DNA of 64,000 nucleotides. It comes from Anaerovoracaceae bacterium. Lineage in GTDB: Bacteria; Bacillota; Clostridia; Peptostreptococcales; Anaerovoracaceae. Shown here piece after piece: positions 8,818 to 62,905 of the stretch. The first letter of the stretch is position 1; each line of letters begins with the position of its first letter. Made by a program: the position numbers and the translations under genes. The notes beneath the pieces were generated by a model. It did no database searches, was not told the DNA's origin, and saw only the letters and a program-made list of their open reading frames with translations. Where the stretch lies: positions 134,858 through 198,857 of the forward strand of contig JAVBLY010000008.1 of NCBI GenBank assembly GCA_031553035.1, written 5' to 3'.

Positions 8818-8843
8818 CTACAAAGCTGAATAAACGTTGAAAA

Positions 8844-8876: not shown

Positions 8877-9018
8877 TCGTACGTAATATAAACGTAACAA
8901 GATAAATAGTTAAAATAATAACAAAAGTGTTTTAAAATTAACAAAATGTGGTATAATGCATATAGATGAACAAAAAGGTTCAGACTCAATATCAAAAAGT
9001 ATCCAGGGAAGGGGTGCC

Positions 9019-11826: not shown

Positions 11827-11854
11827 AATATTTGAAATACCTAAGTAAGCAGAG

Positions 11855-11882
11855 AAGGATCGGTTCACCGGTCTTTTTCTTG
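11855..11882 (+). terminator. weak intrinsic terminator between the two ECF modules
   Basis: AAGGATCGG ttca CCGGTCTTT stem (two G-U pairs) followed by TTTTTCTT. Confidence 0.5.
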
Positions 11883-12014
11883 TATTTGGAAGAACACTGC
11901 AAGTATAATGGGAGGAGTCAAACCCAAATCCAGACATGAAAACTTTTCTAATATGTCACATTTTTTCCGGGTGAACCGTGATATAAGTGAGACATGTTTC
12001 AGAGAGGAGTTCAA

Positions 12015-12557: not shown

Positions 12558-13515
12558 GCATATAAAAGATGCGTTTGACAGCATCAGTGTAAATAAAGAA
12601 AAAATCGATAAGGCAGTTGTTTCAGAGGTATCAGGCATGAGGGCCGGAACAAAAGCCGTTAAGTACGGGAAAGTTGCAAGCCGAAAATCCATTGCAATAG
12701 CTGCGGCAATGGTTGTGGTATTGGCGTTTGGTGCAGTTATTTATGAAACCGGATTGTTTGATCTTGGTAAATTAAATGATCCACACAATTCAGGTTTGGA
12801 ATATGAATATCCGGCACTTGAAGAATCAAATCAATATAAAGCCGCATTGGAATACAACAAGTATCTGGATAGCTTGTCTCAAAAAGAGAAACACGAATTA
12901 TTTAGTAATAACGATAATGTATTTATTATGGATGAAGAAACAGGAGTTATGACAAGTACAGGACCTAATGAAAAGCTTAAAGAGATTTTAAAGAAGCATA
13001 ACCTTAAATATGATCTTAAGGAGTTTACAAACATACCATCGGTACAAATTGCCGCTGAAAAAACAGGTTTATCTGGATTTTCTGATGACTTTATCGATAA
13101 ATATGACGATGGCAAGGGTGGCTACAAATATACGGAAAATGGTAAACTGATGATGCATAATCATATGGCACCGAATTATTGGGAATTGGTGTGTTGCCCC
13201 AATGATGTGTTTATTGGTGAGGAAGCTTTTAACTATCCAAATAGTGAGAGAGAAAAAGGAACGGAAGAAGAGTGGTTCTATTTAACAAAGGATGGTCATG
13301 AAATTAAATGCGCAACATATAAAATCAAGGGGGCATACGAAGATGGAAAAGGGAATGAAACCCCTGCTATGATGAGAGTATTCCTTTCTATTATGATTAC
13401 TGATGAGTATACCTTTATGTTTAATTATGATAAGACAATAGAAGATACATCTGATATGACGAAGTCAGAATTCGAAGAAATACTTGAACTCTTTGATTAC
13501 TCTAAGCTAGATTAA
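12547..13515 (+). CDS. single-pass membrane protein, putative anti-sigma factor (module 2)
   Basis: Overlaps the sigma stop. TM IAIAAAMVVVLAFGAVIY is near-identical to module 1. Shared blocks: QYKAA, L(K)KYDLK, and the C-terminal FE.(I/M).(K/L)FD(F/Y)SKL. Confidence 0.6.
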   Translation: MSDKHIKDAFDSISVNKEKIDKAVVSEVSGMRAGTKAVKYGKVASRKSIAIAAAMVVVLAFGAVIYETGLFDLGKLNDPHNSGLEYEYPALEESNQYKAALEYNKYLDSLSQKEKHELFSNNDNVFIMDEETGVMTSTGPNEKLKEILKKHNLKYDLKEFTNIPSVQIAAEKTGLSGFSDDFIDKYDDGKGGYKYTENGKLMMHNHMAPNYWELVCCPNDVFIGEEAFNYPNSEREKGTEEEWFYLTKDGHEIKCATYKIKGAYEDGKGNETPAMMRVFLSIMITDEYTFMFNYDKTIEDTSDMTKSEFEEILELFDYSKLD

Positions 13516-13638
13516 GCTTGATACCATAAAATAATCACTGATCTGGTTAATAACGGTGAAGTTATAGTAAAAAGCATTTAGTGCCCTGCAATACATAGTC
13601 ATTAAATAATCTTATCCGCGAGAATGTATGGTATCAAC

Positions 13639-13668
13639 AAAGCCCCTAAAATGGGGGCTTTATTTTTC
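13639..13668 (+). terminator. intrinsic terminator
   Basis: AAGCCCC taaaat GGGGCTT followed by TATTTTT. Confidence 0.8.
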
Positions 13669-13751
13669 TGTTTGGAAATTTTCTTGATTTATGACAAAAA
13701 TATAATTGACCAAAATGGTAATATATGGTATTTTCTACCAGGAGGCAAATA

Positions 13752-14810
13752 ATGGAAAAAATTACCATTTGTATTATAGATAAAGATGAGACCTATAAAA
13801 CAGCCCTTATGGAGTTTATGAAATCCTATTGTCGTAATTATGTTGTGAGCATACCTGTGCTTGAGAACGCCGAAAAAGAGCAGGTACAGGATGTTATTTC
13901 GTCAAATGATATCCTTCTTATCAGTTACGATTATCTGGAAGTTTTTAAAAAAGTAGCGTCCAATGATTTTGCTGCCAAGACCATTGTTCTTTTGGAAAGT
14001 TTTGCAAAGTGGGATGAAAAGCATACTGAGGGATTAAATATTGTTTCGAAATATACTGATATCAAAAAGATAATCAATTATATCGACAATCACTATTATG
14101 AGCTTAATTCAAGCTCTGTTCATATGAAAAAATCCATAACAAAACTTGTGATCTGCCTTGGACTTTCAGGCGGTTCGGGAGTATCCTCCATATCCGAAGG
14201 CATCGCATCCGAGCTTTCGAAATACAGGGGACGAAGAGTCTTTTTTTTCAGCCTGGATCAATTTGAGCCTGAATTGAATAATTTGGGACAGGAAACGCAA
14301 GAGCGCATTATATACTCACTGATAAATAACGATTTTTCAAATGATAAGAAGATATTCGAAAACAGCATGGTCGAGACAGCGGATGGCGTCTGGAGAATGC
14401 CGGTGTCCAGTCACAGGAATGTATTTTACGAATTAGAGCTAAAAGAGAAGAAGAAGTATATTAAGGAAGTCACTGCAAACAATAAATTTGATTATATAGT
14501 CATTGATTGCGGCAACAGGCTTGATGAATTTGCGGATTACCTGATCGGGAATTCGGACGATATAATCATCGTCGACGCCCATATGAGTATCAAGAATCGG
14601 TTTATGACAGGGCTGATCGACTTTGTGAATGAGGTCAAGATGAACGATCACGAATGTATTTTGGTTGAAAACTTTATGGAAAGTGACCATACACAGACTT
14701 ACGAGAGCGCACTGCCAATCAGCTGCTGTCAAAGATCAAAAGATATGCCTATTACCGGAGATATCAAATTCTGCTCGGATATAAAGAACATTGTGGATTA
14801 CATAGGATAG
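13752..14810 (+). CDS. CpaE/TadZ-like pilus-assembly protein (receiver-like N-domain plus degenerate ParA/MinD-like domain)
   Basis: Sits immediately upstream of cpaF. N-terminus ITICIIDKDETYK is receiver-like. The P-loop position reads GLSGGSGVSS, with no lysine. AGGAGG RBS. Confidence 0.55.
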   Translation: MEKITICIIDKDETYKTALMEFMKSYCRNYVVSIPVLENAEKEQVQDVISSNDILLISYDYLEVFKKVASNDFAAKTIVLLESFAKWDEKHTEGLNIVSKYTDIKKIINYIDNHYYELNSSSVHMKKSITKLVICLGLSGGSGVSSISEGIASELSKYRGRRVFFFSLDQFEPELNNLGQETQERIIYSLINNDFSNDKKIFENSMVETADGVWRMPVSSHRNVFYELELKEKKKYIKEVTANNKFDYIVIDCGNRLDEFADYLIGNSDDIIIVDAHMSIKNRFMTGLIDFVNEVKMNDHECILVENFMESDHTQTYESALPISCCQRSKDMPITGDIKFCSDIKNIVDYIG

Positions 14811-14812
14811 CC

Positions 14813-16015
14813 ATGGATAAAAACAAAATAATCAAAGAAAAGACAGAGATCATAAGAGAAAACATCAGGCAGAACATCTCAGGGAAAAGTGATGAAGATG
14901 TAATGACTCTCATCGAAGAAGAGGTGCTTAATGATCATAAGCTTGCCGTCATTTCTCTGAGAGAAAAAACAGAGATCATCAAAAACGTTTTTTATAAAAC
15001 AAGAAGAGACCTGAATATTTTGGAAGCCTATGCCTTTGACGACAAGGTCTCGGAGATAATGGTCAACGGCAAGGATTCCATTTTTATTGAGCGTGACGGT
15101 GCTGTCATAGAGATTTGCGAACAGTTCGATTCTACAGTGGAGTTGGAAGATGTGATCAGAAGGATCGGCTCAAAGGTCCACCGGGAAATAAATGAGATGA
15201 CACCCATCTTGGATGCCAGACTTGAAGACGGCTCCAGAGTGAATGCCGTGTATAAGAATATTGCCCTAAACGGACCGATCCTGACGATCAGGCGATTCCC
15301 CACAACCAGAATAATGATGACAGATCTTCTTGAGTTTGAAACAATTACAAAAGAAGCTGCCGATTTTCTAAAGAAACTGGTAGAAGGGGCATATAACATC
15401 TTTATCAGCGGCGGTACCAGTTCGGGGAAAACCACTTTTTTAAATGTCCTCTCAAACTACATCCCAAAAGACGAGAGGGTCATAGTGATTGAGGATTCGG
15501 CGGAGCTTCAGATCACGGAGATCGACAATATAGTGCGGCTCGAATGCAAGAATGCCAATGTTCAGGGTAGGGGCGCCATAGTAATGAAAGACCTGATCAA
15601 AACCAGCTTGAGGATGCGCCCCAACAGGATCATCGTCGGGGAGGTTAGGGGAGAAGAAGTGCTTGATATGATACAAGCTATGAACACCGGTCATGACGGT
15701 TCATTATCAACCGGCCACGGCAACTCCCCCAAAGGTATGCTCCACAGGCTTGAGGCCATGTTCCTGCAGGCAGCGGATTTTCCAATTGAAGCCATCAGGA
15801 GGCAGATCGTTGAGGGGATCGATATCATGGTTCATCTCGGAAGGCTTTCAGACAAAAAACGTGTGGTTCTTGATATTTCGGAGATAGAGACAATAGAAAA
15901 TGGTGAAATCAAGATCAATCAGCTGTTTAAGTATTCTGTGAACAGCGGACTGACGAGGACCAGGAATCCGGTGAAAAACACATTGAAGCTAGAACTTAAA
16001 GGAATAACATTATGA
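14813..16015 (+). CDS. CpaF/TadA-family secretion ATPase
   Basis: Walker A GGTSSGKTT, VIVIEDSAEL, RMRPNRIIVGEVRG, and the His box TGHDGSLST. Confidence 0.9.
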   Translation: MDKNKIIKEKTEIIRENIRQNISGKSDEDVMTLIEEEVLNDHKLAVISLREKTEIIKNVFYKTRRDLNILEAYAFDDKVSEIMVNGKDSIFIERDGAVIEICEQFDSTVELEDVIRRIGSKVHREINEMTPILDARLEDGSRVNAVYKNIALNGPILTIRRFPTTRIMMTDLLEFETITKEAADFLKKLVEGAYNIFISGGTSSGKTTFLNVLSNYIPKDERVIVIEDSAELQITEIDNIVRLECKNANVQGRGAIVMKDLIKTSLRMRPNRIIVGEVRGEEVLDMIQAMNTGHDGSLSTGHGNSPKGMLHRLEAMFLQAADFPIEAIRRQIVEGIDIMVHLGRLSDKKRVVLDISEIETIENGEIKINQLFKYSVNSGLTRTRNPVKNTLKLELKGITL

Positions 16016-38503: not shown

Positions 38504-39400
38504 ATGGACGGGATAATAAATTTTCTCAAACCGGCGGGAATGACATCTCATGATGCAGTCAGTTTCTTTAGAAGGCTGACAGGCATCAGGAAAGTAGGCC
38601 ATACAGGGACATTGGATCCTATGGCGGCAGGAGTACTTCCCATTTGCATTGGAAAGGCCACCAGACTGATCGAATATCTGGAAGGGGACAAATCATACAG
38701 GGCTATAATGAGATTAGGTGTGAAAAGCGAGACAGGTGATATCTGGGGAAATGAACTTGAAACAGTAGAAGTCCCAAAAATTTTGGAACTTGAGGGCATA
38801 AATGAATGCCTGAAAAGTTTTGAAGGCCGGATAACGCAACGAGTGCCTGGATTTTCGGCTCAGAAGCACGATGGAAGAAAATTATATGAGTATGCAAGAG
38901 CGGGAGAAGAAATACCGGTAAAAGAAAAAAAAGTTGACATTAAAAATGTTACAGTAATTGCATTCGATGATAAAAAAAAAGAAGTGGCATTTGATATATT
39001 TTGTTCAAAAGGGACATATGTAAGAACCATCTGCACTGATGCAGGAGAAAAGCTGGGAACCGGCGGTGTAATGAACTTTCTTCTAAGGACAACGGCAGGA
39101 GGATTGGATGTAAAGGATTCGGTCACTGCCGAAGAACTGAAAAGCGAAATCGATAGCGCAGGAAATATAAACAAGTATCTTCGGGATCCAGGAGATCTGC
39201 TTAAAAATATGAACCGGATCGTTCTAAGCAAAGCAGATGCCAGACTGTTTGTAAATGGCATAGTCTTGGATAAAAGGACCGATGACGAAACATATTATGC
39301 AGTATTCACCGCATCAGAGAATAAGGGCGGAAAACTTATCGGCATAGGACGTGGGAGAAATAAAAAGCTAAAACCACATAAAGTGATTATCTCGGAGTGA
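38504..39400 (+). CDS. truB: tRNA pseudouridine(55) synthase
   Basis: GIINFLKPAGMTSHD, and GHTGTLDPMAAGVLPI with the catalytic Asp. Confidence 0.95.
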   Translation: MDGIINFLKPAGMTSHDAVSFFRRLTGIRKVGHTGTLDPMAAGVLPICIGKATRLIEYLEGDKSYRAIMRLGVKSETGDIWGNELETVEVPKILELEGINECLKSFEGRITQRVPGFSAQKHDGRKLYEYARAGEEIPVKEKKVDIKNVTVIAFDDKKKEVAFDIFCSKGTYVRTICTDAGEKLGTGGVMNFLLRTTAGGLDVKDSVTAEELKSEIDSAGNINKYLRDPGDLLKNMNRIVLSKADARLFVNGIVLDKRTDDETYYAVFTASENKGGKLIGIGRGRNKKLKPHKVIISE

Positions 39401-50375: not shown

Positions 50376-50768
50376 TTATCGGGTTCTCTGATTTTCCTTA
50401 GGGGTGACACACACTCCCTTGGCTCTGCAAACAACGATAGGTTCGTCAAGAACATCTGCAGCACTCGGACTGATATCCGGTCTTACAGCTATTACTTTTC
50501 TTGCCTCAAACTCCATTATTCTGGAAGTCTCACCGTGCTTAGTGATCTCTCCGTATGCTTCGATAAAGTCACCTCCGTAAATAGGCGCCAGGAATTCCAC
50601 ATCGTTGTATTTAAGGAAAAGTCCTTCATCGCCGTCGATTTGAATAAGCAGCTCAGTAGCAACATCTCCGAAAAGGTGCACTGCATGGGCACCGTCTACA
50701 AGATTTCCGCCGTAATGAATATCCTTATGTGAAATCCTCAATCTTATTGTGCTAGTGTACTTGGTCAT
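50376..50768 (-). CDS. kal: 3-aminobutyryl-CoA ammonia-lyase (hotdog fold)
   Basis: 130 aa from the ATG at 50768 (GGGAGGGAAAAATAT upstream). [34 protein letters not shown]...[17 protein letters not shown] matches my recollection of Kal. Lies next to the lysine-fermentation operon. The longer track ORF (to 51005) is an artefact. Confidence 0.75.
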
Positions 50769-50836
50769 ATATTTTTCCCTCCTGTCAATTATACAATTAT
50801 AATACGTAGTCTTATGAAAAGACAAACTAATATATT

Positions 50837-50852
50837 TGCAAAAAACATGCCA
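50837..50852 (-). promoter_or_regulatory. sigma-54 (-24/-12) promoter of kal
   Basis: The minus strand reads TGGCAT-GTTTT-TTGCA. The -12 element ends 69 nt before the kal ATG. Confidence 0.7.
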
Positions 50853-50880
50853 CTGGGTTATCATGTAAATAGCACAATCT

Positions 50881-50896
50881 GAACCGAAAACGGTTC
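50881..50896. promoter_or_regulatory. inverted repeat GAACC-N6-GGTTC, candidate activator-binding site
   Basis: GAACCGAAAACGGTTC followed by GCGCTA. It has the same core as the palindrome at 53076..53107. Confidence 0.5.
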
Positions 50897-50943
50897 GCGC
50901 TAAGTTGGTCAAATTCAATAAATGTGGACAAAAGGGGATAAAT

Positions 50944-53037
50944 ATGCTACAGGATCTTAGAGAAAAATTTAAATATCGCGGACTCAGAAGATGTCTCGAA
51001 CCCAAAGATGTCTTACCGACTACTGCATGGAAGCTTGATAATTCACCTGGGATCTATCCTGAAGAAATAAGGATATCCGTCAAAAAAGTCATGATGGAAT
51101 CCACCAGTTTCAAACAGGTCTGCATTGAATCAAATGATGAAGCAAACAAGATCATAGACAAGGTAAAAGATATAATCGCTAAGAGAGGGAAGCTTCATAA
51201 TCCGGTGACAGACACAGGAGGACTTCTTTACGGTGTGGTTGAGGAAATAGGTGATTTATATGACAACAAAGCCGGGATCAAGCTTGGCGACAGGGTTATA
51301 TGCAACTCGTCACTTGCTTCCATACCTCTTTTTATTGACAAGATCAATTCAATCGATAAAACTTATTCTCTCATGGATGTGGAAGGTTACGGAATTTTGT
51401 TAAATGATTTTCCGATAGTCAAATATACTGACGAAGTGCCTATCGACCTTTTTATGTTTGCATGTAACGAATCCGGGACTTTATACACTGTAAGTGAATA
51501 TTCCAAAGGCAAACAGGATTTTCTTATAATAGGAGATCACTTTATAAGCAACCTCATGTTCGGTTATGCTATCAAAAAAAGTATAGGCGACAGAGCCCAT
51601 ATCACCTGTCTTCTGGACAAAAAAAGTGAAATGAAGATGACAGGAGGTCGCCTTCAGGAGTTGATGGATTCAACATTTGAAGAAATCCATTATGCAGATA
51701 TCTTAAGTCCTCTTGAGTGTGTAGATAAATTCAATCTTGAGAAGAGATATGACCTTGCTGTAAACTGTGCCGACATACCTGGCGGGGAGACAATCAATGT
51801 AATGGCCGCAAAGGACGGCGGTTCTATTTTTTTCGCTAATATGATTAACAACTACAATACCGCTCTCTATGTAACTGAAGCGATTTCCCGGGTGGTTGAT
51901 ATCAAAGGCGCAGGCGGTTATCTGGAGGAATATGCGGATTTCGATATCGAGCTGGTCAAAGAGATAGCACCGTTTTTTAAAGACACGGTTATAAGTGATA
52001 TCGATATGACTGATGACATGGATTATCCTCTTGGAAGAGAGCAGAAAAGTATAGAGCAGGCGGGATACAGGAAGAGCCTTGCCGATGATTTCATATGTGA
52101 GAGCCGTTCCATGATAACAGTTCTGCAGGAAATACTGAGCGTTGCCAAATACGACTGCAACGTTCTGATAATAGGGGAGACAGGTGTGGGCAAGGAAAAA
52201 GTTGCTAATTTAATACACAAAAACAGCACGAGAAATATGCATCCCTTTGTAAAAGTCAACTGCGCAGCAATAGCGCCCAATCTTCTCGAGTCGGAATTTT
52301 TCGGTTATGAAAAAGGGGCATTTACCGGTGCTACCACTTCAGGCAAACAGGGGTTTTTCGAGATCGCAAATAACGGAATCATGTTTCTTGATGAAGTGGC
52401 AGAACTTCCATTCGACCTTCAGGCCAAGCTTCTGAGAGTCATCCAGGATGGCGAGTTTTACAGGGTGGGCGGTACTGAGCCTGTGAAGACGAATGTCCGC
52501 ATACTCTCAGCTTCAAACAAAGATCTTATGAGGCTTGTTGATGAATCAAAATTCAGAGACGATTTGTATTACCGCCTCAATGTTTTTCCCATAAAAGTGC
52601 CGAATCTTTCGGAAAGGCGGATTGAGGTCCCGACGCTCGCTAAGTATTTTCTTGGAAAATATGCAGAAAAATTTGGTGTAAGCAAAGAGATCAGCAGCGG
52701 TGCACTGGACGTGCTTAAGGAACATGAATGGAAGGGCAATATAAGAGAACTGGAGAATATGGTTCAGCGTGTACTTATCAGCTCTCAGAGCGACAGGATA
52801 ACTGTTATGGATGTGACCAAAGAACTGGATAACGAACTTCTGGAAGGTGGAGAATATATAGATGTGGATTTGAGAACGGATGATGTACTTCCGCTTAAGA
52901 CCCTGGTGGAAGATTTTGAGGGAGGCCTCATAAATAAAGCATGTGAAAAATACGGGTCGACAAGAAAGGCAGCAAAAGCACTTGGCATAAGTCAGACTCA
53001 ACTTGTACGGAAAAGAAGAAGAAATGATAATACATAG
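50944..53037 (+). CDS. sigma-54-dependent transcriptional activator with an N-terminal Kdd-like sensor region
   Basis: AAA+ core with [20 protein letters not shown] and NIRELEN. C-terminal Fis-type [24 protein letters not shown]. The N-terminal ~360 aa aligns with the Kdd product encoded at 53277..54308. Confidence 0.9.
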
Positions 53038-53075: not shown

Positions 53076-53107
53076 ATAATAGCGAACCAATATTGGTTCG
53101 CTATTAT
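53076..53107. promoter_or_regulatory. 32-bp perfect palindrome, candidate upstream activating sequence
   Basis: ATAATAGCGAACCAATATTGGTTCGCTATTAT. Its centre lies about 104 bp upstream of the -24 GG. Confidence 0.6.
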
Positions 53108-53115: not shown

Positions 53116-53140
53116 GCACCAAAATCGGTTCGAATAGCGA
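53116..53140. promoter_or_regulatory. second, imperfect activator-site candidate
   Basis: GCACC-AAAATC-GGTTCGAATAGCGA shares the GGTTCG and ATAGCGA words with the palindrome. Confidence 0.4.
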
Positions 53141-53193: not shown

Positions 53194-53209
53194 TGGCACG
53201 CCTATTGCT
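53194..53209 (+). promoter_or_regulatory. sigma-54 (-24/-12) promoter of the kdd-kamA...kce operon
   Basis: TGGCAC-GCCTA-TTGCT is an exact match to TGGCAC-N5-TTGCW. The -12 element ends 68 nt before the kdd ATG. Confidence 0.85.
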
Positions 53210-53276: not shown

Positions 53277-54308
53277 ATGAAAAAAGGAAATCCGTTCGGA
53301 ACACACAGAGTTATTTCACCAAAAGGGGTTCTGCCTCAGCCGGCAGATGTCATCGACAACACAATGGAGATTTTTGATAACGAAGTACTCATTGATGTCC
53401 AGACACTTAATGTGGACTCTGCCAGTTTCACACAGATCGAAAAGCAGGCAGAAGGTAATATTGAAGAAATCAAAAAGATCATGAAGGGGATCGTCGCTAA
53501 GGCCGGTAAACATAAGAATCCTGTAACAGGTTCAGGTGGAATGCTTATTGGGACAGTCAGGGAAATTGGGCCGGCATATGAAGGTCTGCTAAAAGTAGGG
53601 GACAAAATAGCAACTCTGGTTTCACTTTCACTGACACCCCTCGTTATCGAAGAGATAATCGAAATAAGACCTGACATCGACCAGGTGGATATCAAAGGGC
53701 AGGCAATACTTTTCCAGAGCGGCATCTATGCAGTACTTCCCGACGATATGCCCGAAACTCTTGCATTATCAGTACTTGACGTTGCAGGTGCTCCGGCGCA
53801 GGCAGCAAGAATGGTGCAGGCCGGAGATACGGTTGTGGTAATCGGCGGCGGCGGAAAATCAGGACTTCTCTGTTTGTTTGAAGCAAAGAAAAGAGCCGGA
53901 GTTACGGGCAAGGTCATCTGCGTCGGAGGTTCGGACAAGTCGACAAACAGAGCCAAGAAACTGGGCCTGGCTGATGAATACTTTGCAATGGATGCGACAG
54001 ATGCAGTAGGCATGTATGACAAGATCATGGAACTTACAGACGGACAGCTTGCTGATCTGGTAATCAACTGTGTAAACATAGAGAACACTGAAATGGCTTC
54101 GATTCTGGCATGCAAGGAAAGAGGGATGGTTTACTTCTTCTCAATGGCAACAAGCTTCACAAAAGCAGCCCTCGGCGCGGAAGGCGTAGGAAAAGATGTT
54201 ACTATGATCGTCGGAAACGGTTATGCCAAGGATCATGCCGCTATTGCACTTCAGGTCCTTAGAGATTCACCAGAGATTCGCGAACTATTTGAAGAAATGT
54301 ACGCATGA
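53277..54308 (+). CDS. kdd: L-erythro-3,5-diaminohexanoate dehydrogenase
   Basis: 343 aa. Rossmann loop VVVIGGGGKSG. The size and position beside kamA/kamDE/kce fit Kdd. GGAGGG RBS before the ATG at 53277. Confidence 0.8.
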   Translation: MKKGNPFGTHRVISPKGVLPQPADVIDNTMEIFDNEVLIDVQTLNVDSASFTQIEKQAEGNIEEIKKIMKGIVAKAGKHKNPVTGSGGMLIGTVREIGPAYEGLLKVGDKIATLVSLSLTPLVIEEIIEIRPDIDQVDIKGQAILFQSGIYAVLPDDMPETLALSVLDVAGAPAQAARMVQAGDTVVVIGGGGKSGLLCLFEAKKRAGVTGKVICVGGSDKSTNRAKKLGLADEYFAMDATDAVGMYDKIMELTDGQLADLVINCVNIENTEMASILACKERGMVYFFSMATSFTKAALGAEGVGKDVTMIVGNGYAKDHAAIALQVLRDSPEIRELFEEMYA

Positions 54309-54377: not shown

Positions 54378-55646
54378 ATGATGGAAAAATATACTTATAG
54401 AAACTGGAAAGACATTCCGCTATACAAAGATGTTACTGAAGAACAGTGGAACGACTGGCACTGGCAGATCAAGAACAGACTGACCACCGTAGAAGAGATC
54501 GGACAAGTCATTAAGCTTACCGAAAAGGACGAAGAGGATATTACTAAGGTCATGGAAGGATTCCGAGTAGGGATCACACCTTACTATGCATCTCTCATGG
54601 ATCCCGACGATCTTAAAGATCCCGTAAGACTTCAGGCGGTACCGACTTTGGCCGAGTCTAAGAGAGGATCGGCAGACATGGAAGATCCGCTTCATGAGGA
54701 TGAAGACTCACCGGCTCCCGGCCTTACTCACAGATATCCCGACAGAGTACTTTTCTTGATCACAGACCAGTGCTCAATGTACTGCAGGCACTGTACAAGG
54801 AGAAGACTTGCAGGCGAAAAAGACGGAGCAAGATCAAGAGCAGATATAGATGCATGTATTGCATATGTAAAGAAAACACCTCAGGTAAGAGACGTCCTGC
54901 TTTCCGGCGGTGACTGCCTTTGCGTATCAGATGATACATTAGAATACATAATCAGCGAACTTAGAAAGATCGAACATGTCCAGATCGTAAGACTGGGGTC
55001 AAGAACACCTGTTGTTATGCCTCAGAGAATCACAGACAACCTCGTTAACATGCTGAAAAAATATCATCCAATATGGCTCAATACTCATTTCAACCATCCA
55101 AAGGAAATGACTCCCGAAGCAATCGCGGCCTGTGCAAAGCTGGCCGATGCAGGAATACCGCTGGGCAACCAATCTGTACTTTTAAGAGGCGTCAACGACA
55201 CTCCTGATGTAATGAGGGAATTAGTTCATGTTCTTGTCGCAAACAGGGTAAGACCGTATTACATTTACCAGTGTGATCTGAGTCTTGGAATAGAACACTT
55301 CAGAACAAAAGTATCAAAGGGAATAGAGCTTATCGAATGTTTGAGAGGACATACTTCAGGATTCTGCGTTCCAACTTTTGTGGTAGACGCTCCGGGCGGC
55401 GGCGGGAAGACCCCGGTTATGCCACAGTACGTAATTTCACAGACACCGGATAAGGTGATCCTGAGAAACTACGAAGGAGTCATCACAACCTATACAGAAC
55501 CTAAGATCAATGAACTGGATCCTGAATATGATGAGACAATCGGTACCACAGCTTATGAGTATGACGGCGTAGCATCTCTTGCCACCGGTAAGCAGATGGC
55601 TCTGGAGCCTGGCAATCTGGAAAGACATAATCGAAACAAAAAATAG
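54378..55646 (+). CDS. kamA: L-lysine 2,3-aminomutase (radical SAM, PLP)
   Basis: CSMYCRHCTRR (CxxxCxxC), and RYPDRVLFLITDQC and GGDCL-type blocks. Confidence 0.95.
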   Translation: MMEKYTYRNWKDIPLYKDVTEEQWNDWHWQIKNRLTTVEEIGQVIKLTEKDEEDITKVMEGFRVGITPYYASLMDPDDLKDPVRLQAVPTLAESKRGSADMEDPLHEDEDSPAPGLTHRYPDRVLFLITDQCSMYCRHCTRRRLAGEKDGARSRADIDACIAYVKKTPQVRDVLLSGGDCLCVSDDTLEYIISELRKIEHVQIVRLGSRTPVVMPQRITDNLVNMLKKYHPIWLNTHFNHPKEMTPEAIAACAKLADAGIPLGNQSVLLRGVNDTPDVMRELVHVLVANRVRPYYIYQCDLSLGIEHFRTKVSKGIELIECLRGHTSGFCVPTFVVDAPGGGGKTPVMPQYVISQTPDKVILRNYEGVITTYTEPKINELDPEYDETIGTTAYEYDGVASLATGKQMALEPGNLERHNRNKK

Positions 55647-55675
55647 ACATTTGGACATAGACATAAGGAATTCGA

Positions 55676-56710
55676 ATGAAACTGTATGATGAAGTACTAA
55701 ATAAATATGATGTTCTTTCTCTCGTAGGCATGTCCAAGAATGCGGGCAAGACAACCGCCCTCAATTATCTCATCGAGGAAGCCTACGACGAGGATGTCAT
55801 CCCCGGAATCACCTCCACCGGAAGAGACGGTGAAGGAACGGATCTGGTTACAGGAACTGAGAAGCCGAAGGTCTATGTGTATGAAGACAGTATCGTCACC
55901 ATACCCATTGATCTCTTCGACATAGCTGATGCCGGTCTTGAGATCCTCAGCAGAACTAATTATCATTCGACATTCGGAAGCATACTCATGTGCAGGGTAC
56001 TGGATGAAGGATTTGTTCAGGTGGCAGGTCCCACTTCAACAGCTGACCAGAGAAAGCTCAGCAGGGAAATGCTGGAACTGGGTGCAGACATCATACTTAT
56101 CGACGGTGCGATAGACAGGCGTTCAATAGCTTCACCGTTTGCTTCAGATGCCATAATCCTGTCAACCGGAGCAGTACTGTCAAGGGATATGGATATAGTG
56201 GTAATGGATACCATGCATGTGGTCGAACTTTATACTCTGCCTGAATTTGGGTCAGAAGGTAAAGAAAAACAGTATGCAGAAAAGCTTAATGCACCGGGAT
56301 ACTGTGAAAGTACAGTGATCATGAGAAAAGATAAACTGGAAATACAAAGTTGTCAAACCGGTCTGATGGCAGGCAACAAACTGGACAGGCAGATCGATGA
56401 TGAAACGGAATTCCTGTATTTACCGGGAGCTCTTACTACTTCGACTTTGGAATACATTATGCCTGAAAAACTCAGGCAGATCACCTTTGTGGTCAAGGAC
56501 CCCACCAAGATATTCATTGACAGGGTGTCGTACCGAAGGCTTAAGAAAAAAGGTCTGAAAATCAAGGTTCTTAAGGGCATAAAGGTAGCTGCCATAACAG
56601 TTAATCCGTATTCTCCCGAAGGATATTCTTTCGGAAACAATATGCTTCTTGAAGCAATGCGGGATGCTGCAGGCGATCTTCCGGTAATAGATGTAAAAAA
56701 ACCTGATTAA
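55676..56710 (+). CDS. P-loop NTPase-like protein of unknown function, embedded in the lysine operon
   Basis: N-terminal Walker A LVGMSKNAGKTT. 344 aa. I recognise no other motif. Confidence 0.55.
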   Translation: MKLYDEVLNKYDVLSLVGMSKNAGKTTALNYLIEEAYDEDVIPGITSTGRDGEGTDLVTGTEKPKVYVYEDSIVTIPIDLFDIADAGLEILSRTNYHSTFGSILMCRVLDEGFVQVAGPTSTADQRKLSREMLELGADIILIDGAIDRRSIASPFASDAIILSTGAVLSRDMDIVVMDTMHVVELYTLPEFGSEGKEKQYAEKLNAPGYCESTVIMRKDKLEIQSCQTGLMAGNKLDRQIDDETEFLYLPGALTTSTLEYIMPEKLRQITFVVKDPTKIFIDRVSYRRLKKKGLKIKVLKGIKVAAITVNPYSPEGYSFGNNMLLEAMRDAAGDLPVIDVKKPD

Positions 56711-56722
56711 GAGGAGATAGAT

Positions 56723-58372
56723 GTGCTTAAAACTAAGCTTTCAAATGAAAAAACCAAGGTTGAACTGGGACTGAGATACGTCATCGGACGGATCGACGTT
56801 CTTACTCCTTTTGGGAAAAAAATCATAAAAAAGCTGAAGCCGAATTTTCCGGGCAGTGAAGGACGCCTTGTAAAAGAACTGGATAAGCTTGAGGTTATCA
56901 GAAAGATAATAGACGATTATGAAGATACTTTAAGCAAGATCTCCGGTATATTCATGCAGATCAAGGACAACAGCTTCACCCTGGAAAGAAGTGCTTTTGA
57001 CGTACTTACCGTTGTCGAGCTGTTTGAAATAAAGACATTTTTGCTCCAGCTTGAGACTTTGAGCGGTCTTTATGCTAAACTGGGCAGCGATTTTCCTGAT
57101 GAATATACACCGGCGGATACCAAGGAACTTCTGGATCTTATGGATCCGGAAGACAGCAGACTGGCTACATTCTATATCTATGACACATTTTCCCTGAAGC
57201 TTGCAGAGTACCGTAAGGAAAAAAGGCAGCTTGAAAAGAACCTTAAAAGGGAACAGAAGCTGATCAAGGACAGAATTTATGAAGAGCACGGACTTCAACT
57301 CAGTCCGAAATTCGACATAATAATATCCAGATCCGATGCCGAATCCCTGGAAAAGATAAAAAGCATCCCTGAACTTGTAATGGGTACCGAAGATTATATA
57401 TCGGTCATATTTGCTCTTGAGAAGACTGAAGAACAGCTCAAGATCAAGGAACAGATCGAAGATCTCAACACGAAAATTGATGAGGAAGAATATATAGTAA
57501 GAAAAATGCTCACCGATAAAGTGTTTGAGAACAGAAAGACCATAACCAGAAACACCAAAAAAATAGGCGATCTGGACTTTGTAATCGCCAAAGCCAAATT
57601 TGCCAGAAAGCACAACTGTATAAAACCGAATATCGTGCTGAACCACATTATAGATATAAAAGAGGGCAGATACCTGCCTGTGGAAGACGCTCTTGAAGAA
57701 AAGGGCAAGCATTACCTCCCGATCACAATAGGATTGAATGACGGTGTAACATGCATAACCGGTGCGAACATGGGGGGGAAAACCGTTTCCATGAAGCTGG
57801 TGGGACTGCATGCTATGCTGTCACAATACGGATTTTTTGTACCTTGTAAAGAATGCACGGTAGGTCTGTCCTCTTTTATTCATATACTTGTAGGTGATAG
57901 TCAGGACATACAGAGAGGGCTTTCAAGCTTCGGCTCCGAAATGGAAGAACTGGCCCAGATCCTGGATAACGGCAAGGATAGATCTATGATACTGATCGAC
58001 GAGATAGCAAGTTCCACAAATCCGTTCGAAGGTTTTGCCCTGACTAAATCCCTTGTGGAATACCTGAGGGAAAGGCCGTATATCAGCCTCATCACCACTC
58101 ATTATGAGAATGTAAGCACTTCGGAGAATATAAAAAGTCTTCAGGTGAGAGGTCTTGCGGATGCCGATTTTGAGAAGCTTTCTAAAGAGCTGACCGGCGC
58201 AAAAGACAATGAGCGAATTGACGTAATAGCAAATTACATGGACTATAATCTTGTAGATTCAAACGAGGGCAAAAATGTGCCCAAGGAAGCACTTAATATA
58301 GCATATGTGCTTGGAGTGAAGAAAGAAATAATAGACAATGCCAAGCAGATGATAACAAGTGAATTATTTTAA
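56723..58372 (+). CDS. MutS-domain-V ATPase-like protein (no mismatch-binding or Smr domain)
   Basis: GTG start after GAGGAG. Shows ITGANMGGKTVSMK (Walker A), SSFGSEMEE, ILIDEIASSTNPFEG (Walker B), and LITTHY. Confidence 0.75.
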   Translation: MLKTKLSNEKTKVELGLRYVIGRIDVLTPFGKKIIKKLKPNFPGSEGRLVKELDKLEVIRKIIDDYEDTLSKISGIFMQIKDNSFTLERSAFDVLTVVELFEIKTFLLQLETLSGLYAKLGSDFPDEYTPADTKELLDLMDPEDSRLATFYIYDTFSLKLAEYRKEKRQLEKNLKREQKLIKDRIYEEHGLQLSPKFDIIISRSDAESLEKIKSIPELVMGTEDYISVIFALEKTEEQLKIKEQIEDLNTKIDEEEYIVRKMLTDKVFENRKTITRNTKKIGDLDFVIAKAKFARKHNCIKPNIVLNHIIDIKEGRYLPVEDALEEKGKHYLPITIGLNDGVTCITGANMGGKTVSMKLVGLHAMLSQYGFFVPCKECTVGLSSFIHILVGDSQDIQRGLSSFGSEMEELAQILDNGKDRSMILIDEIASSTNPFEGFALTKSLVEYLRERPYISLITTHYENVSTSENIKSLQVRGLADADFEKLSKELTGAKDNERIDVIANYMDYNLVDSNEGKNVPKEALNIAYVLGVKKEIIDNAKQMITSELF

Positions 58373-58387
58373 GAAAGGATGCAAACT

Positions 58388-59941
58388 ATGAGCAAATTGA
58401 ATCTTGATCCGAAAATCATTGACGGTGCCCGTAGCTGCGCGGCAAGAATAGCCGAAGATGTTCAGCAGTTTATCGAAAAGCATACTACGGTAAGCACGGA
58501 AAGAACTGTTGCAAGACTTCTCGGTATCGACGGGACAGATGATGTGGGGACACCTCTTCCGAATATTCTGATCGAACAGATAAAGGATGCCGGCGGCCTG
58601 GCAAGAGGCTGTGCATATTGGATCGGCAATGCAATGATCGAAACCGGGCTGAGCCCACAGGAAATAGCACAGAAAGTAAGCGACGGAGAAATAGAGATCA
58701 CTAAGCTTGCTGCATCTTCTGCTGAAGACACGGAGGCAAAAATATATCCGGCAGTGGAAGCAGCACTTGCAAAAATAAAAGAACAGAGAGAATTCAGAGA
58801 AGATACAATAGATAGAATAGGTGAGGGACGACAGCCTTACCTGTATGTAATAGTTGCCACCGGCAACATTTATGAAGACGTTGTTCAGGCACAGGCCGCC
58901 GTAAGGCAGGGTGCCGACGTAGTAGCTGTCATAAGGACCACTGCTCAAAGCCTGCTGGATTATGTTCCATACGGACCTACCACAGAAGGCTTCGGCGGAA
59001 CATATGCCACTCAGGAGAATTTCAAGATCATGAGGGAAGCTCTGGACGAAGTAGGTGAAGAAGTGGGCAGATACATAAGACTCTGTAACTATTCATCAGG
59101 CATGTGCATGGCGGAGATCGCCGCTATGGGAGCCCTTGAGAGACTTGATATGATGCTCAATGATGCTCTTTACGGCATACTCTTTAGAGATATCAATATG
59201 CAGAGAACTCTCGTCGACCAGTATTTCTCAAGAGTCATAATCGGGTATTCAGGAATCACCTTCAATTCAGGTGAGGATAATTATCTTACAACATCTGATG
59301 CATTTGAAGAAGCACACACAGTACTGGCTTCACAGTTTTTGAATGAGCAATTCGCGGTGCTCGCAAATATTCCCGAAGACCAGATGGGCCTCGGACACGC
59401 ATTCGAGATGGATCCGGCTCTTGAAGACGGATTCCTTTATGAGGTTTCACAGGCAATAATGGCAAGGGAAATTTTCCCTGAAGCTTCGCTTAAATACATG
59501 CCGCCCACAAAGTTCATGACAGGTAATATTTTTAAGGGACAGATTCAGGATGCTCTGTTCAACCTGGTTTCGGTCTGGTCAGGACAAAGTATTCAGCTTC
59601 TTGGTATGCTTACGGAAGCCATACATACACCTTTCATGCAGGACAGATATCTTTCACTTGAAAATGCCGGCTATATTTTCAACAACGCGAGACATCTCGG
59701 CGACGAGATCGAATTCAAGAAAGACGGTATCATTCAGAATAGAGCCGTATCCGTACTTGATGAAGCAGACAAGATGCTCCATCAGATCGAAAAGGATACG
59801 CTGTTTACAACTATAGAACAGGGTAAGTTCGGCGGTGTCAAAAGGGCACGTGACGGCGGAAAAGGACTGGATGGTGTCATAGTCAAAGATGACAGATATT
59901 TCAATCCGTTTATTTCTGCAATGATGGGAGGTGACAAATAA
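58388..59941 (+). CDS. kamD: lysine 5,6-aminomutase alpha subunit
   Basis: LNLDPKIIDGARSCAARIAEDVQQFI...TVSTERTVARLLGIDG. About 517 aa, immediately followed by the B12-binding subunit. Confidence 0.9.
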   Translation: MSKLNLDPKIIDGARSCAARIAEDVQQFIEKHTTVSTERTVARLLGIDGTDDVGTPLPNILIEQIKDAGGLARGCAYWIGNAMIETGLSPQEIAQKVSDGEIEITKLAASSAEDTEAKIYPAVEAALAKIKEQREFREDTIDRIGEGRQPYLYVIVATGNIYEDVVQAQAAVRQGADVVAVIRTTAQSLLDYVPYGPTTEGFGGTYATQENFKIMREALDEVGEEVGRYIRLCNYSSGMCMAEIAAMGALERLDMMLNDALYGILFRDINMQRTLVDQYFSRVIIGYSGITFNSGEDNYLTTSDAFEEAHTVLASQFLNEQFAVLANIPEDQMGLGHAFEMDPALEDGFLYEVSQAIMAREIFPEASLKYMPPTKFMTGNIFKGQIQDALFNLVSVWSGQSIQLLGMLTEAIHTPFMQDRYLSLENAGYIFNNARHLGDEIEFKKDGIIQNRAVSVLDEADKMLHQIEKDTLFTTIEQGKFGGVKRARDGGKGLDGVIVKDDRYFNPFISAMMGGDK

Positions 59942-60714
59942 TGACTGCTGAAAAAAAGATAGCTACATCAAATGTAGATTTAAAGAAAGTAAAGCCATAC
60001 GGCGATACAATGAACGACGGCAAAACACAGCTCAGTTTCACCCTTCCTGTTCCTTATGGTCCAGAGGCCGATGAAGCGGCAAAACTTTTATGCAAAAAAA
60101 TGGGAATGGACGAACCGAACGTGGTTTATTCTAAAGATATGGGCGGCGGATTCACATTTTTCGTCGTATACGGAAGCTGTCAGCATACTATCGACTACAC
60201 AACAATAAAAGTAGCCAAGGTGGATGTTGAAATCATGGACAGGGAACAGTGCCAGGAATTCATCGAAGAGAACATCAAGCGTGAAGTCGTTATCGTAGGG
60301 GCTTCATCAGGTACTGATGCCCACACGGTAGGCATCGATGCGATAATGAACATGAAGGGCTTTCACGGTCACTTCGGCCTGGAAAGATTCAAGGGTATCG
60401 ATGCTCTGAATATGGGTTCTCAGGTTCCAAATGAAGAACTGGTCGCAAAGGCAATCGAAATGAATGGGGACGCAATAATCGTTTCACAAACTGTAACACA
60501 GAAAAATGTACACATACAGAACTTGACCAATCTTGTTGAGCTTGTGGAAGCGGAAGGCATAAGAGACAGAATAGTCCTCTGCTGCGGGGGACCCAGGATA
60601 TCACACGAACTGGCTCAGGAACTTGGCTATGATGCAGGGTTCGGACCACATACATATGCCGAACATGTAGCTTCGTTCGTACTGACGGAAATAATCAGAA
60701 GAAAGCTTGTTTAA
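59941..60714 (+). CDS. kamE: lysine 5,6-aminomutase beta subunit (cobalamin/PLP-binding)
   Basis: Start overlaps the kamD stop (TAATG). B12 motif SSGTDAHTVG (DxHxxG). Confidence 0.9.
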   Translation: MTAEKKIATSNVDLKKVKPYGDTMNDGKTQLSFTLPVPYGPEADEAAKLLCKKMGMDEPNVVYSKDMGGGFTFFVVYGSCQHTIDYTTIKVAKVDVEIMDREQCQEFIEENIKREVVIVGASSGTDAHTVGIDAIMNMKGFHGHFGLERFKGIDALNMGSQVPNEELVAKAIEMNGDAIIVSQTVTQKNVHIQNLTNLVELVEAEGIRDRIVLCCGGPRISHELAQELGYDAGFGPHTYAEHVASFVLTEIIRRKLV

Positions 60715-60739
60715 AAGGGCAGGTAAGGAGGAAGATGAA

Positions 60740-61420
60740 TTGATAGATAAAATCAAAACTGCCGAGGAGGCGATCGCAAATATCGAAGACGGCGCAAGCA
60801 TAATGATAGGAGGCTTCATGGCCTGCGGTTCGCCGGAGATCCTCATCGATGCACTGGTCAAAAAGAATGTAAAGAATCTGACCATAATTTGCAATGATGC
60901 GGGAGTGCCGGGAAGAGGAACAGGCAAACTTCTGTCCAACGGACAAATCAAAAAGCTCATTGCATCCCATGTGGGGCTGAATCCTGAGGTCGCAGAAAGG
61001 ATGAACACCGACGATCCTGAGAGGAAGCTGGAATGTCAGTTAATTCCTCAGGGCACACTTGCTGAAAGGATAAGAGCAGGCGGAAGCGGACTTGGCGGTT
61101 TTCTCACTCCGACAGGGGTAGGGACTATCGTCGCTGAAGGCAAGCAGGTAATAAACGTGGGCGGCAGGGATTATCTCCTTGAAGAGCCGCTTAAAGCCGA
61201 CTTTGCTTTTATCAGAGGATCAGTTACGGATAAATTCGGAAATACAACATATAACGGTACTACCAGAACATTCAATCCAATGATGGCGGCAGCTGCTGAT
61301 GAAGTCATCGTCGGTACATGTGAGGTCGTGGAAATGGGCGACATAGATCCCAATAATATCGTGACATCAGGAATATTCGTTGACAGCATAGTGGGAGGTG
61401 AGAAACAATGGCAGATATAA
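60740..61420 (+). CDS. atoD: 3-oxoacid CoA-transferase subunit A (acetoacetate:butyrate/acetate CoA-transferase)
   Basis: IMIGGFMACGSPEILIDAL and PQGTLAERIRAGGSGLGGFLTPTGVGT. Likely TTG start at 60740, seven nt after AAGGAGGA. Confidence 0.85.
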   Translation: MIDKIKTAEEAIANIEDGASIMIGGFMACGSPEILIDALVKKNVKNLTIICNDAGVPGRGTGKLLSNGQIKKLIASHVGLNPEVAERMNTDDPERKLECQLIPQGTLAERIRAGGSGLGGFLTPTGVGTIVAEGKQVINVGGRDYLLEEPLKADFAFIRGSVTDKFGNTTYNGTTRTFNPMMAAAADEVIVGTCEVVEMGDIDPNNIVTSGIFVDSIVGGEKQWQI

Positions 61421-62058
61421 AAGAAAGGATCGCCAAGAGAGTTGCATTAGAGCTTCATGACGGCGATGTTGTGAATCTTGGCATTGGTCTTCCCACAATG
61501 GTTGCAAATCATCTTCCCGAAGATGTACATATAATTCTCCAGTCCGAGAACGGCATAATGGGCATGGGCCCGGCACCTGAGGCAGGCAAAGAAGACGTTG
61601 ACATCGTCAATGCAGGAGCGCAATATGTGACCATCAACAAAGGTGCGATGTTCTTTGACAGCGCAACTTCATTTGGCATAATAAGAGGCGGTCATGTGGA
61701 TGCTACTATTCTGGGTTCCCTCGAAGTCGATGAGCACGGAAATCTTTCTAACTGGATCGTACCGGGAAAGATGGTTCCCGGTATGGGCGGAGCAATGGAT
61801 CTTGTGGTAGGGGCCAAAAAGGTCATAATAGCGATGCAGCATACTCAGAAGGGCAAACACAAAATATTAAAGGAATGTACACTTCCATATACCGCAGTAG
61901 GTGTTGTGGATATGATAGTCACTGAAATGGGCGTTATGGAAGTTACAGACAAGGGGATCGTCCTCACCGAGATCCACCCTGATTTCACAATAGAAGATGT
62001 CCAGGCGGCAACTGACTGCAAACTGATAATAGCCGAAGATCTGAAGGAAATGAAATAA
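61408..62058 (+). CDS. atoA: 3-oxoacid CoA-transferase subunit B
   Basis: VNLGIGLPT, SENGIMGMGP (catalytic Glu context), and GMGGAMDLV. Confidence 0.85.
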   Translation: MADIKERIAKRVALELHDGDVVNLGIGLPTMVANHLPEDVHIILQSENGIMGMGPAPEAGKEDVDIVNAGAQYVTINKGAMFFDSATSFGIIRGGHVDATILGSLEVDEHGNLSNWIVPGKMVPGMGGAMDLVVGAKKVIIAMQHTQKGKHKILKECTLPYTAVGVVDMIVTEMGVMEVTDKGIVLTEIHPDFTIEDVQAATDCKLIIAEDLKEMK

Positions 62059-62074
62059 AGGATGGGGTACTAAA

Positions 62075-62905
62075 ATGGAAAAACTAATTATCAGCGCCTG
62101 CATATGCGGCGCAGAGGTCACTAAAGAGAATAATCCCGCTGTTCCGTATACAGTTGAGGAAATAGTAAGAGAAGCCAAGTCCGCTTATGATGCAGGGGCG
62201 GCAGTCATACATCTCCATGTGAGAGAGGATGACGGTACTCCCACCCAAAGTAAGGACAGATTCCAGGAATGTATGGACGCGATCTACAAAGTATGTCCTG
62301 ACGTTATCATACAGCCTTCAACAGGCGGAGCCGTCGGCATGACCGATCTTGAGAGACTTCAGTCCACCGAAGTTACTCCCACACCTGAATTTGCAACTCT
62401 CGACTGCGGTACCGTAAATTTCGGCGGTGATGAGATCTTTGTCAACACCGACAATACCATATTCAATTTTGCAAAGATCATGCAGGAGAGAGGCATCAAG
62501 CCGGAGCTGGAAGTCTTTGATAAGGGAATGGTTGATATAGCTCTCAAGGTCGATAAAAAAGGTCTGCTTGAGCATCCGCTTCACTTCGACTTCGTCCTTG
62601 GAATCCAGATGACAGCAACTGTCAGAGATCTTGCTTTTATGGTGGGGAGTATTCCTCCCGGATCGACCTGGACAGTAGCAGGAATCGGCAAAAGTGAGTT
62701 TGATATGGCGGCGGCCGGTATAATAATGGGCGGACACGTCAGAGTCGGATTTGAAGACAATCTTTATATAGAAAAGGGTGTTCTTGCCAAGAGCAATGGC
62801 GAACTTGTTGCGAAAGTTGTTAAGATAGCAGAAGTATTAAACAGAGAAATCGCCAGCCCGGATGAGGCAAGAAAGATAATGAACATGCCGATCCAGAAAA
62901 AATAG
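62075..62905 (+). CDS. kce: 3-keto-5-aminohexanoate cleavage enzyme (BKACE/DUF849)
   Basis: KLIISACICGAEVTKENNPAVPYTVEEIVREAKSAYDAGAAVIHLHVREDDGTPT...IIQPSTGG. Confidence 0.9.
   Translation: MEKLIISACICGAEVTKENNPAVPYTVEEIVREAKSAYDAGAAVIHLHVREDDGTPTQSKDRFQECMDAIYKVCPDVIIQPSTGGAVGMTDLERLQSTEVTPTPEFATLDCGTVNFGGDEIFVNTDNTIFNFAKIMQERGIKPELEVFDKGMVDIALKVDKKGLLEHPLHFDFVLGIQMTATVRDLAFMVGSIPPGSTWTVAGIGKSEFDMAAAGIIMGGHVRVGFEDNLYIEKGVLAKSNGELVAKVVKIAEVLNREIASPDEARKIMNMPIQKK

Follow-up and report, generated by a model that had tools for sequence, protein, structure and literature searches.

What does the activator in the middle of a lysine fermentation locus sense, and from what was its sensor made? The 64,000-nucleotide stretch analyzed here (the window) comes from an Anaerovoracaceae bacterium (assembly GCA_031553035.1, contig JAVBLY010000008.1). 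It carries on its forward strand, at 50944..53037, a gene for a 697-residue sigma-54 enhancer-binding protein (EBP) with a sensor that appears to derive from Kdd, L-erythro-3,5-diaminohexanoate dehydrogenase. The next gene on that strand (53277..54308) had been named as this dehydrogenase in a first-pass annotation made from the sequence. Its product scores 263.7 bits against the NCBIfam model NF052381, above the cut-off of 200, and is therefore a true Kdd; it has the GGGGKSG loop intact and matches Protein Data Bank (PDB) entry 7DL3 with an E value of 1e-112.

The sensor spans residues 13 to 340 of the regulator (50980..51963, forward strand) and consists of a KDD_N half and a remodeled Rossmann half. 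An end-to-end alignment with Kdd had been described at nucleotides ~50990 to 51985. BLASTP of the regulator (697 residues) against the neighboring Kdd (343 residues) places it at ~50980 to 51963, pairing regulator residues 13 to 340 with Kdd residues 8 to 330 and covering 94% of Kdd (92 of 332 positions identical, or 28%; 48% positives; E 6e-36). The 16 identities counted earlier in a shared block of 25 residues (AKAGKHKNPVTGSGGMLIGTVREIG is one of the pair) are found in this alignment as well. A phmmer search against all PDB sequences returns only 3,5-diaminohexanoate dehydrogenase (3,5-DAHDH; 7DL0, 7DL1, 7DL3, and 7DL7) as significant matches, at E 8e-25 to 5e-23 over residues 13 to 341. The NCBIfam Kdd model NF052381 matches residues 13 to 169 with E 2.8e-36 and 125.1 bits, below its 200-bit cut-off; this is the region of KDD_N (PF26370) homology, and precomputed PF26370 matches exist on homologs of the regulator, including the 77%-identical fragment P0021. 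Our own Pfam scan, with a model set that did not hold PF26370, gave no match in residues 1 to 380.

Structure prediction gives the same answer. The AlphaFold2 model of residues 1 to 365, built from an alignment of 37 sequences, has a predicted local distance difference test score (pLDDT) of 85.1 and a predicted template modeling score of 0.85, with pLDDT values of roughly 84 to 96 in the Rossmann half. It shows both domains of the medium-chain dehydrogenase/reductase (MDR) fold, GroES-like and Rossmann. In a Foldseek search of the PDB, the seven top matches are all 3,5-DAHDH chains (7DL0, 7DL1, 7DL3, and 7DL7; E 3e-25 to 6e-24; template modeling [TM] scores up to 0.79). The next class, other zinc-type alcohol dehydrogenases of the MDR family, follows at E ~1e-10 and a TM score of ~0.5, 14 orders of magnitude weaker. 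With the pairwise alignment, the PDB sequence search, and the Foldseek comparison of the predicted structure all significant for Kdd, alignment and model together confirm the sensor region as a full-length Kdd-fold domain.

The rest of the regulator is conventional. A canonical sigma-54 AAA+ core followed by a Fis-type helix-turn-helix (HTH) had been proposed, and Pfam finds these domains with all of their motifs, each on the forward strand. Sigma54_activat (PF00158) covers residues 384 to 550 (52093..52593; 224 bits, cut-off 20.2), the lid domain AAA_lid_14 (PF25601) residues 557 to 631 (52612..52836; 70.2 bits), and the C-terminal HTH (HTH_50) residues 651 to 693 (52894..53022; 45.8 bits, cut-off 27); HTH_8 scores 21.1 bits on the C terminus, slightly under its cut-off of 22. 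GETGVGKE (Walker A) starts at residue 411, GAFTGA at 458, FLDEV (Walker B) at 481, and RELEN, within the lid, at 601. No PAS match was found anywhere in the protein. For the AAA+-HTH part, the best NCBIfam match is PrdR (NF041552), with 319.8 bits against a cut-off of 795 and over model positions 266 to 572 only, and in the protein collection that we searched the regulator is an unnamed singleton. By these signatures it is a bona fide sigma-54 EBP, with ATP- and sigma-54-dependent activation predicted. Given the fusion of its Kdd-like domain to AAA+ and HTH domains, an enzymatic role is almost certainly absent; the sequence, too, speaks against dehydrogenase activity. The ATG start at 50944 has AAAAGGGG directly ahead of it, and orthologs start at the equivalent position; a longer, TTG-initiated frame from 50905, called mechanically, disagrees with the ortholog starts and was rejected.

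The same architecture recurs in related genomes, among them those of many gut and sediment anaerobes. A pattern search with one genome per species found a relative in 350 genomes, and we examined the best 80 loci (L001 to L080). All 80 are from Bacillota, mostly Anaerovoracaceae or Eubacteriales Family XIII, and include Emergencia timonensis, Ihubacter, Aminipila, Sinanaerobacter, Clostridium aminobutyricum, and Bacilliculturomica. In 79 of them a Kdd-like domain leads directly into the AAA+ part; the lone exception is truncated where its contig stops. The gene order in nearly all is kal (reverse strand), regulator, kdd, in some a second kdd, kamA, kamB, kamC, kamD, kamE, ctfA, and ctfB, so that the expected co-occurrence of the fusion with kam/kdd clusters is seen in nearly all of the best 80 of 350 genomes. 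Compared with the nearest genomes, the pathway enzymes are 72 to 88% identical, the sensor domain 50 to 57%, and the AAA+-HTH part 51 to 67%. Judged by the sensor and enzyme values, the regulator is evolving markedly faster than the enzymes of its putative regulon.

The sensor departs from the enzyme most clearly at the dinucleotide-binding loop. In Kdd, VVVIGGGGKSG lies at 53832..53864; in the regulator, the degenerate IIGDHFISN, which replaces VIGGGGKSG, lies at 51526..51552 (forward strand), both exactly where the first-pass annotation had put them. We aligned 77 orthologous regulators, all of full length, with 96 sequences of Kdd, most of them taken from the retrieved loci. The three loop glycines are kept in 96 of 96 enzymes, which read G-G-G-G-K-S-G, or G-A-N-G-K-S-G in 7DL3. 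All 77 regulators read G-[NSD]-[NH]-[LIM]-[LMI]-x-N: the first glycine is kept, the second is Leu, Ile, or Met, and the third is always Asn. The claim that the cofactor signature is destroyed while the fold is kept holds up, with GxxGxxG lost and both the fold and most invariants of the N-terminal half retained.

Indeed, the two halves of the sensor differ in how much of the enzyme they keep. Identity to Kdd is 34% in the N-terminal half and 17% in the Rossmann half. Among 62 diverse Kdd clusters from the representative search (no two more than 50% identical), conservation reaches 85% or more in 42 columns. Of these, 29 belong to the N-terminal half, where degenerate EBP domains keep 19, and 13 to the Rossmann half, where they keep 3 (Fisher p = 0.019). 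Those kept in the N-terminal half are G13, R16, P25, A28, E41, S55, R81-G82-K83, N86-P87, T89, G92-G93, G97, G115, S123, P128, and G148, and those in the Rossmann half are D270, E282, and G293 only. The best-conserved loop shared with Kdd, of the type GKxHNPxTxxGG, is GKHKNPVTGSGG (51187..51222, forward strand), and its residues G82, K83, N86, P87, T89, G92, and G93 are invariant in the 77 regulators, the 96 enzymes, and the 62 diverse enzyme clusters. Residues 81 to 90 (51184..51213), the most conserved motif shared with Kdd, are also the sole internal segment of the AlphaFold2 model with a pLDDT below 50, which suggests a flexible loop that may act as a mobile lid over the cleft. Strong purifying selection appears to act on the N-terminal half (the GKxHNPxTxxGG loop, R16, E41, and S55) and on D270, E282, and E312. 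A remodeled ADP-binding groove beside a conserved cleft is what would be expected of a ligand-binding pseudoenzyme.

Is the sensor, then, a copy of the enzyme next door, as had been thought? The full-length Kdd fold stands, and the copying from the neighbor does not, at least as a recent event, because the sensor is only 24 to 32% identical to co-resident Kdd. We rejected origin by a recent tandem duplication of kdd, given that the two enzymes of a tandem pair share ~75% identity and have intact loops.

A profile search of 1.84 billion representatives points to an older origin. It returned 1026 Kdd-fold proteins, and the 150 top matches, which we inspected, include ~27 EBP fusions of ~680 to 717 residues that fall into many clusters at 50% identity. 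Most have degenerate loops (for example IVGNNxLTN, VIGSNPLTT, and IIARDLISA). Three sigma-54 activators of ~700 residues, P0091, P0094, and P0097, have an intact GxxGxxG (ILGASGRIG, VLGAGGRSG, and VVGAEGKIG, respectively), and P0107, P0109, and P0113 have intermediate loops. In a neighbor-joining tree of 88 Kdd-fold domains, the degenerate-loop domains form one clade (196 of 200 bootstraps), every EBP-fused domain stands apart from every enzyme (161 of 200), and the intact-loop fusions are basal among the fused domains. Because domains from many divergent EBPs group in a clade apart from the enzymes, the fusion is by this tree an old one and its descendants are one old clade. A single fusion event is supported by the derived states that EBP-fused domains share at 7DL3 positions F296 (Ala, Ser, or Thr), F302 (Tyr), and S93 (Thr). 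Loss of the loop glycines is, on the same tree, a derived state inside the clade, because the basal fusions keep GxxGxxG.

The genomic surroundings of these relatives are varied. Among the intact-loop fusions, P0094 (locus L081) and P0097 (L082 and L083) adjoin kdd, the P0097 loci also carry a permease, a kce-type BKACE gene, and a 4HBT/kal-like gene, and P0091 (L084) adjoins a 4HBT/kal-like gene; these three proteins may represent intermediates in the change from enzyme to sensor that bind a cofactor or are even catalytic. Degenerate-loop relatives sit beside other kinds of genes. At L085 (10001-22109) the neighbors are a CoA-transferase, a thiolase, two class-III aminotransferases (Aminotran_3), AbfD-like (HpaB) and AbfT-like (AcetylCoA_hydro) proteins, Fe-ADH, and GDH, the gene set of a gamma-aminobutyrate (GABA)-type butyrate route. 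At L090 (8001-13108) they are an aminotransferase and NhaC, and at L088, L089, and L091 transporters of the DcuC/DctM or NhaC type. Sigma-54 promoters precede the neighboring genes at L081, L084, L085, L087, L090, and L091. Kdd-derived EBP sensors are therefore an old family that has diversified, and the sensor in the window is its member from a lysine cluster.

More tentatively, the Kdd fold may be an unrecognized class of EBP sensor for beta- and omega-amino acids that arose by one fusion, lost its cofactor site, and radiated. Its intact-loop members could sense substrate together with NADPH, or could remain catalytic trigger enzymes, and the class as a whole would control lysine, GABA-type butyrate, aminotransferase, and NhaC/DcuC-type transporter operons. 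If so, the protein in the window would be the lysine representative, and the series would document, step by step, how an enzyme becomes a receptor. At L089 the BREX defense genes brxA, brxB, and brxC (10176-14918) lie directly downstream of the Kdd-type EBP gene; this looks like an island inserted beside the regulator and not a regulated target.

Which genes would the regulator in the window control? On its other side, divergent from it, lies kal, encoding 3-aminobutyryl-CoA ammonia lyase (50376..50771, reverse strand; NCBIfam equivalog NF052388, 180.9 bits, cut-off 160). The first-pass annotation had flanked the regulator with two sigma-54 promoters, and both are perfect matches to TGGCA-N6-TTGC, a pattern with three occurrences in the 64-kb window. 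The predicted -24/-12 element of kdd, TGGCACGCCTATTGC (53194..53208, forward strand), lies 69 nucleotides before the kdd start, and that of kal, TGGCATGTTTTTTGC (50838..50852, reverse strand), 67 nucleotides before the kal start. The third (39228..39242, reverse strand) is antisense within a forward open reading frame (38504..39400), has no suitably oriented gene downstream, and was judged a chance match. A mechanical extension of the kdd frame to a TTG at 53193 would traverse the gene's own sigma-54 promoter, and orthologs agree with the ATG at 53277; there, as at the regulator start (50944), a purine-rich ribosome-binding site precedes the ATG.

Upstream of each of the two promoters is a perfect GAACC-N6-GGTTC palindrome, and these are the only two in the window. 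The candidate upstream activating sequence of kal, TGAACCGAAAACGGTTCG (50880..50897, core 50881..50896), is ~30 bp upstream of its -24 element. That of kdd, CGAACCAATATTGGTTCG (53083..53100, core 53084..53099), is ~110 bp upstream, with a second, imperfect candidate copy, GCACCAAAATCGGTTC (53116..53131), that has one mismatch to the palindrome. In related loci the strict -24/-12 pattern is present before kdd in 58 of 69 and before kal in 52 of 70. Of the related loci whose kdd promoter fits the strict pattern, 22 have GAACC-N6-GGTTC, about half of these at a fixed distance of 88 to 91 bp upstream of the -24 element; most of the remaining related loci have GAAC-N8-GTTC variants, and the palindrome also recurs in the spacer between kal and the regulator. 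As a phylogenetic footprint, this pattern gives good support to the palindrome as the enhancer site, with kdd through kce, and kal, as the predicted regulon.

We consider it probable that the regulator is a one-component sigma-54 activator dedicated to the lysine-to-butyrate genes, with a whole Kdd fold as its beta-amino-acid sensor. The Fis-type HTH would bind the [TC]GAAC[CA]-N6-[GT]GTTC[AG] palindromes. A beta-amino-acid intermediate, most likely L-erythro-3,5-diaminohexanoate or beta-lysine, would occupy the former active-site cleft without being oxidized, and its binding would lift inhibition by the N-terminal domain or otherwise permit assembly of the AAA+ hexamer. At Pkdd and Pkal, ATP hydrolysis would then turn the closed sigma-54 complexes into open ones. 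The enzymes that produce the intermediate belong to the proposed regulon, and basal expression would therefore start a feed-forward induction, as for PrpR with 2-methylcitrate; the positive feedback through the regulator's own regulon that the first-pass annotation envisaged is plausible. PrpR is a sigma-54 EBP that senses 2-methylcitrate, an intermediate made by the enzymes of its own regulon. The likeness would lie in this logic; PrpR differs in sensing through a PrpR_N domain, which is not a paralog of an enzyme of its pathway. We infer the identity of the ligand, the direction of control, and the feed-forward logic.

Several observations weigh against this mechanism. The nicotinamide-side residues E312, G325, Y326, and N274, which correspond to E310, G323, Y324, and N272 of 7DL3, are kept in the regulators; E310 of 7DL3 hydrogen bonds with the amide of NADPH (PMC9902596). 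Similarly, D225, at the end of strand beta-2, is invariant in the 77 orthologs, and with these residues conserved, a nucleotide-like ligand of some sort may be bound. The statement that the substrate side is kept refers to domain halves and their conservation and not to mapped contacts. The invariants kept by the sensor in the window are also kept in relatives beside non-lysine operons, so they do not single out 3,5-diaminohexanoate. Finally, rpoN was not found within the 64-kb window, which is uninformative at this window size.

An alternative that we regard as unlikely is that the sensor binds L-lysine itself, or another amino compound unrelated to the Kdd substrate, through a pocket re-specified after the fusion. 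The age of the fusion and the low identity of the sensor to the enzymes would leave room for this, other amino-acid operons have evidently become the targets of sister clades, and sensing of the substrate needs no basal flux through the pathway. However, the lysine-cluster clade keeps more of the enzyme invariants than the re-targeted clades do; one example is a motif of 13 residues, complete in the lysine-cluster clade and variable at several positions in the others.

It is doubtful, to a slightly greater degree, that the sensor still binds a nucleotide cofactor, either NAD(P)H or an ADP-containing compound such as an acyl-CoA of the pathway, and reports redox or CoA-ester status. Beyond the kept nicotinamide-side residues and D225, the replacement residues in the loop are conserved as well (N203 in 100%), a sign of a pocket re-used rather than decayed, and the basal EBP fusions have GxxGxxG. 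In Rossmann folds, however, the loop positions at issue must be glycine for the pyrophosphate to approach, and the second and third are replaced in 77 of 77 orthologs. The enzyme invariants F296, T300, F302, and G321 (7DL3 numbering) are all altered, and the Rossmann half has diverged to 17% identity. Very improbable is a third alternative, in which the pseudo-Kdd domain heterodimerizes with active Kdd and the regulator follows Kdd amount or substrate occupancy in the trigger-enzyme style for which DhaR with DhaK/DhaL is the comparison system: MDR enzymes are dimers, the regulator adjoins kdd in almost every locus, the entire dimeric enzyme fold is kept beyond a binding lobe, and a second kdd paralog directly follows the regulator in many genomes, but the relatives at L085, L088, L090, and L091 lie beside operons without kdd, which means that not every member of the family has a Kdd partner, and the strong conservation of cleft-side motifs better fits binding of a small molecule.

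How does a putative beta-amino-acid sensor of the Kdd fold compare with known systems? The closest is Kdd itself (7DL0, 7DL1, 7DL3, and 7DL7; NF052381; PF26370), which has the fold in common over the whole length of the sensor (TM score 0.79) and shares with it the GKxxNPVTxxGG loop, R16, E41, S55, D270, E282, E312, and G325-Y326; a true kdd is adjacent. The regulator differs in the replacement of the glycine loop and several Rossmann contacts, in its score (125 bits against the 200 of the cut-off), and in its fusion to AAA+ and HTH domains. Among regulators of lysine catabolism, KamR of Bacillus thuringiensis is a PAS-type sigma-54 EBP that activates kamA (PMC4428206). It resembles the system described here in pairing a sigma-54 promoter with an adjacent EBP at a lysine 2,3-aminomutase locus; the sensor of KamR is a PAS domain, whereas here it is a Kdd fold and the predicted regulon is the full fermentation pathway. 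PrdR/OrdR-type EBPs are likewise one-component sigma-54 activators of Stickland and other amino-acid catabolic operons in Clostridia (PMC6615313), with N-terminal sensors unrelated to the Kdd fold. In MocR/GabR-type regulators an aminotransferase-fold sensor is fused to an HTH domain, and GabR keeps its pyridoxal phosphate (PLP). Like these, and like EBPs with Fe-hydrogenase-like N-terminal domains, the regulator would use a whole enzyme fold as the effector-binding domain of a transcription factor; it differs in using the MDR/Kdd family with a sigma-54 AAA+ output and in having lost its cofactor loop, where GabR has kept PLP.

The first-pass annotation took this type of sensor to be undescribed, and that is correct in part. 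In the literature searched we found no description of a Kdd-derived EBP sensor, nor, apart from kamA in Bacillus, any account of how lysine-to-butyrate fermentation is regulated. A study of Clostridiales sigma-54 regulons that catalogs the EBPs of amino-acid fermentation includes neither an EBP for lysine or kdd nor a Kdd-like domain (PMC6615313). NCBI names these fusions only generically, as sigma-54 regulators. Enzyme-derived EBP sensors do have precedents, as the sensors listed by Nie et al. include Fe-hydrogenase-like and PrpR_N modules (PMC6615313), and Pfam KDD_N marks the proteins. We therefore regard the Kdd-fold sensors as a previously undescribed class, well supported by sequence and with an unusually legible evolutionary series, and not as a categorically new mechanism, since enzyme folds are already known as transcription-factor sensors in GabR/MocR and in hydrogenase-like EBP domains.

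Gut and sediment anaerobes ferment lysine to butyrate, acetate, and ammonia, and this is a significant route by which they produce butyrate and ammonia. For this route the locus supplies a candidate dedicated regulator, promoters, and operator, all of them conserved across no fewer than 79 species-level genomes from Anaerovoracaceae and related groups. The family would be a clean case of a pathway enzyme turned sensor of its own pathway, and with apparent intermediates persisting, the conversion of a catalytic into a signaling pocket is testable. Kdd is already an engineering target in beta-amino-acid biocatalysis, a field in which an orthogonal sigma-54 switch with beta-lysine or 3,5-diaminohexanoate as its specific ligand could be used as a biosensor.

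The remaining genes of the cluster follow kdd on the forward strand: kamA (54378..55646), kamB (55676..56710), kamC (56723..58372), kamD (58379..59941), kamE (59941..60714), the 3-oxoacid CoA-transferase genes ctfA (subunit A, 60707..61420) and ctfB (subunit B, 61408..62058), and kce (62075..62905). All genes from kamA to kce (54378..62905) exceed their NCBIfam equivalog or subfamily cut-offs, and because such models identify the flanking pathway genes, the regulator is placed, by annotation, midway in a complete lysine-to-butyrate fermentation cluster. Scans for sigma-70 promoters around the regulator and for terminators after kce gave nothing above shuffled expectation.

Gene content and order vary among related loci. 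Two tandem kdd genes lie directly after the regulator in 27 of them (for example L016, L017, L019, L021, L023, L027, L028, L035, L036, and L039); the pairs share ~75% identity with GGGGKSG intact in both copies, and the window has a single kdd. In L038 the entire kdd-kam operon is inverted and diverges from the regulator. L064 carries an additional kce-kal pair upstream (7726-9026), besides the divergent kal.

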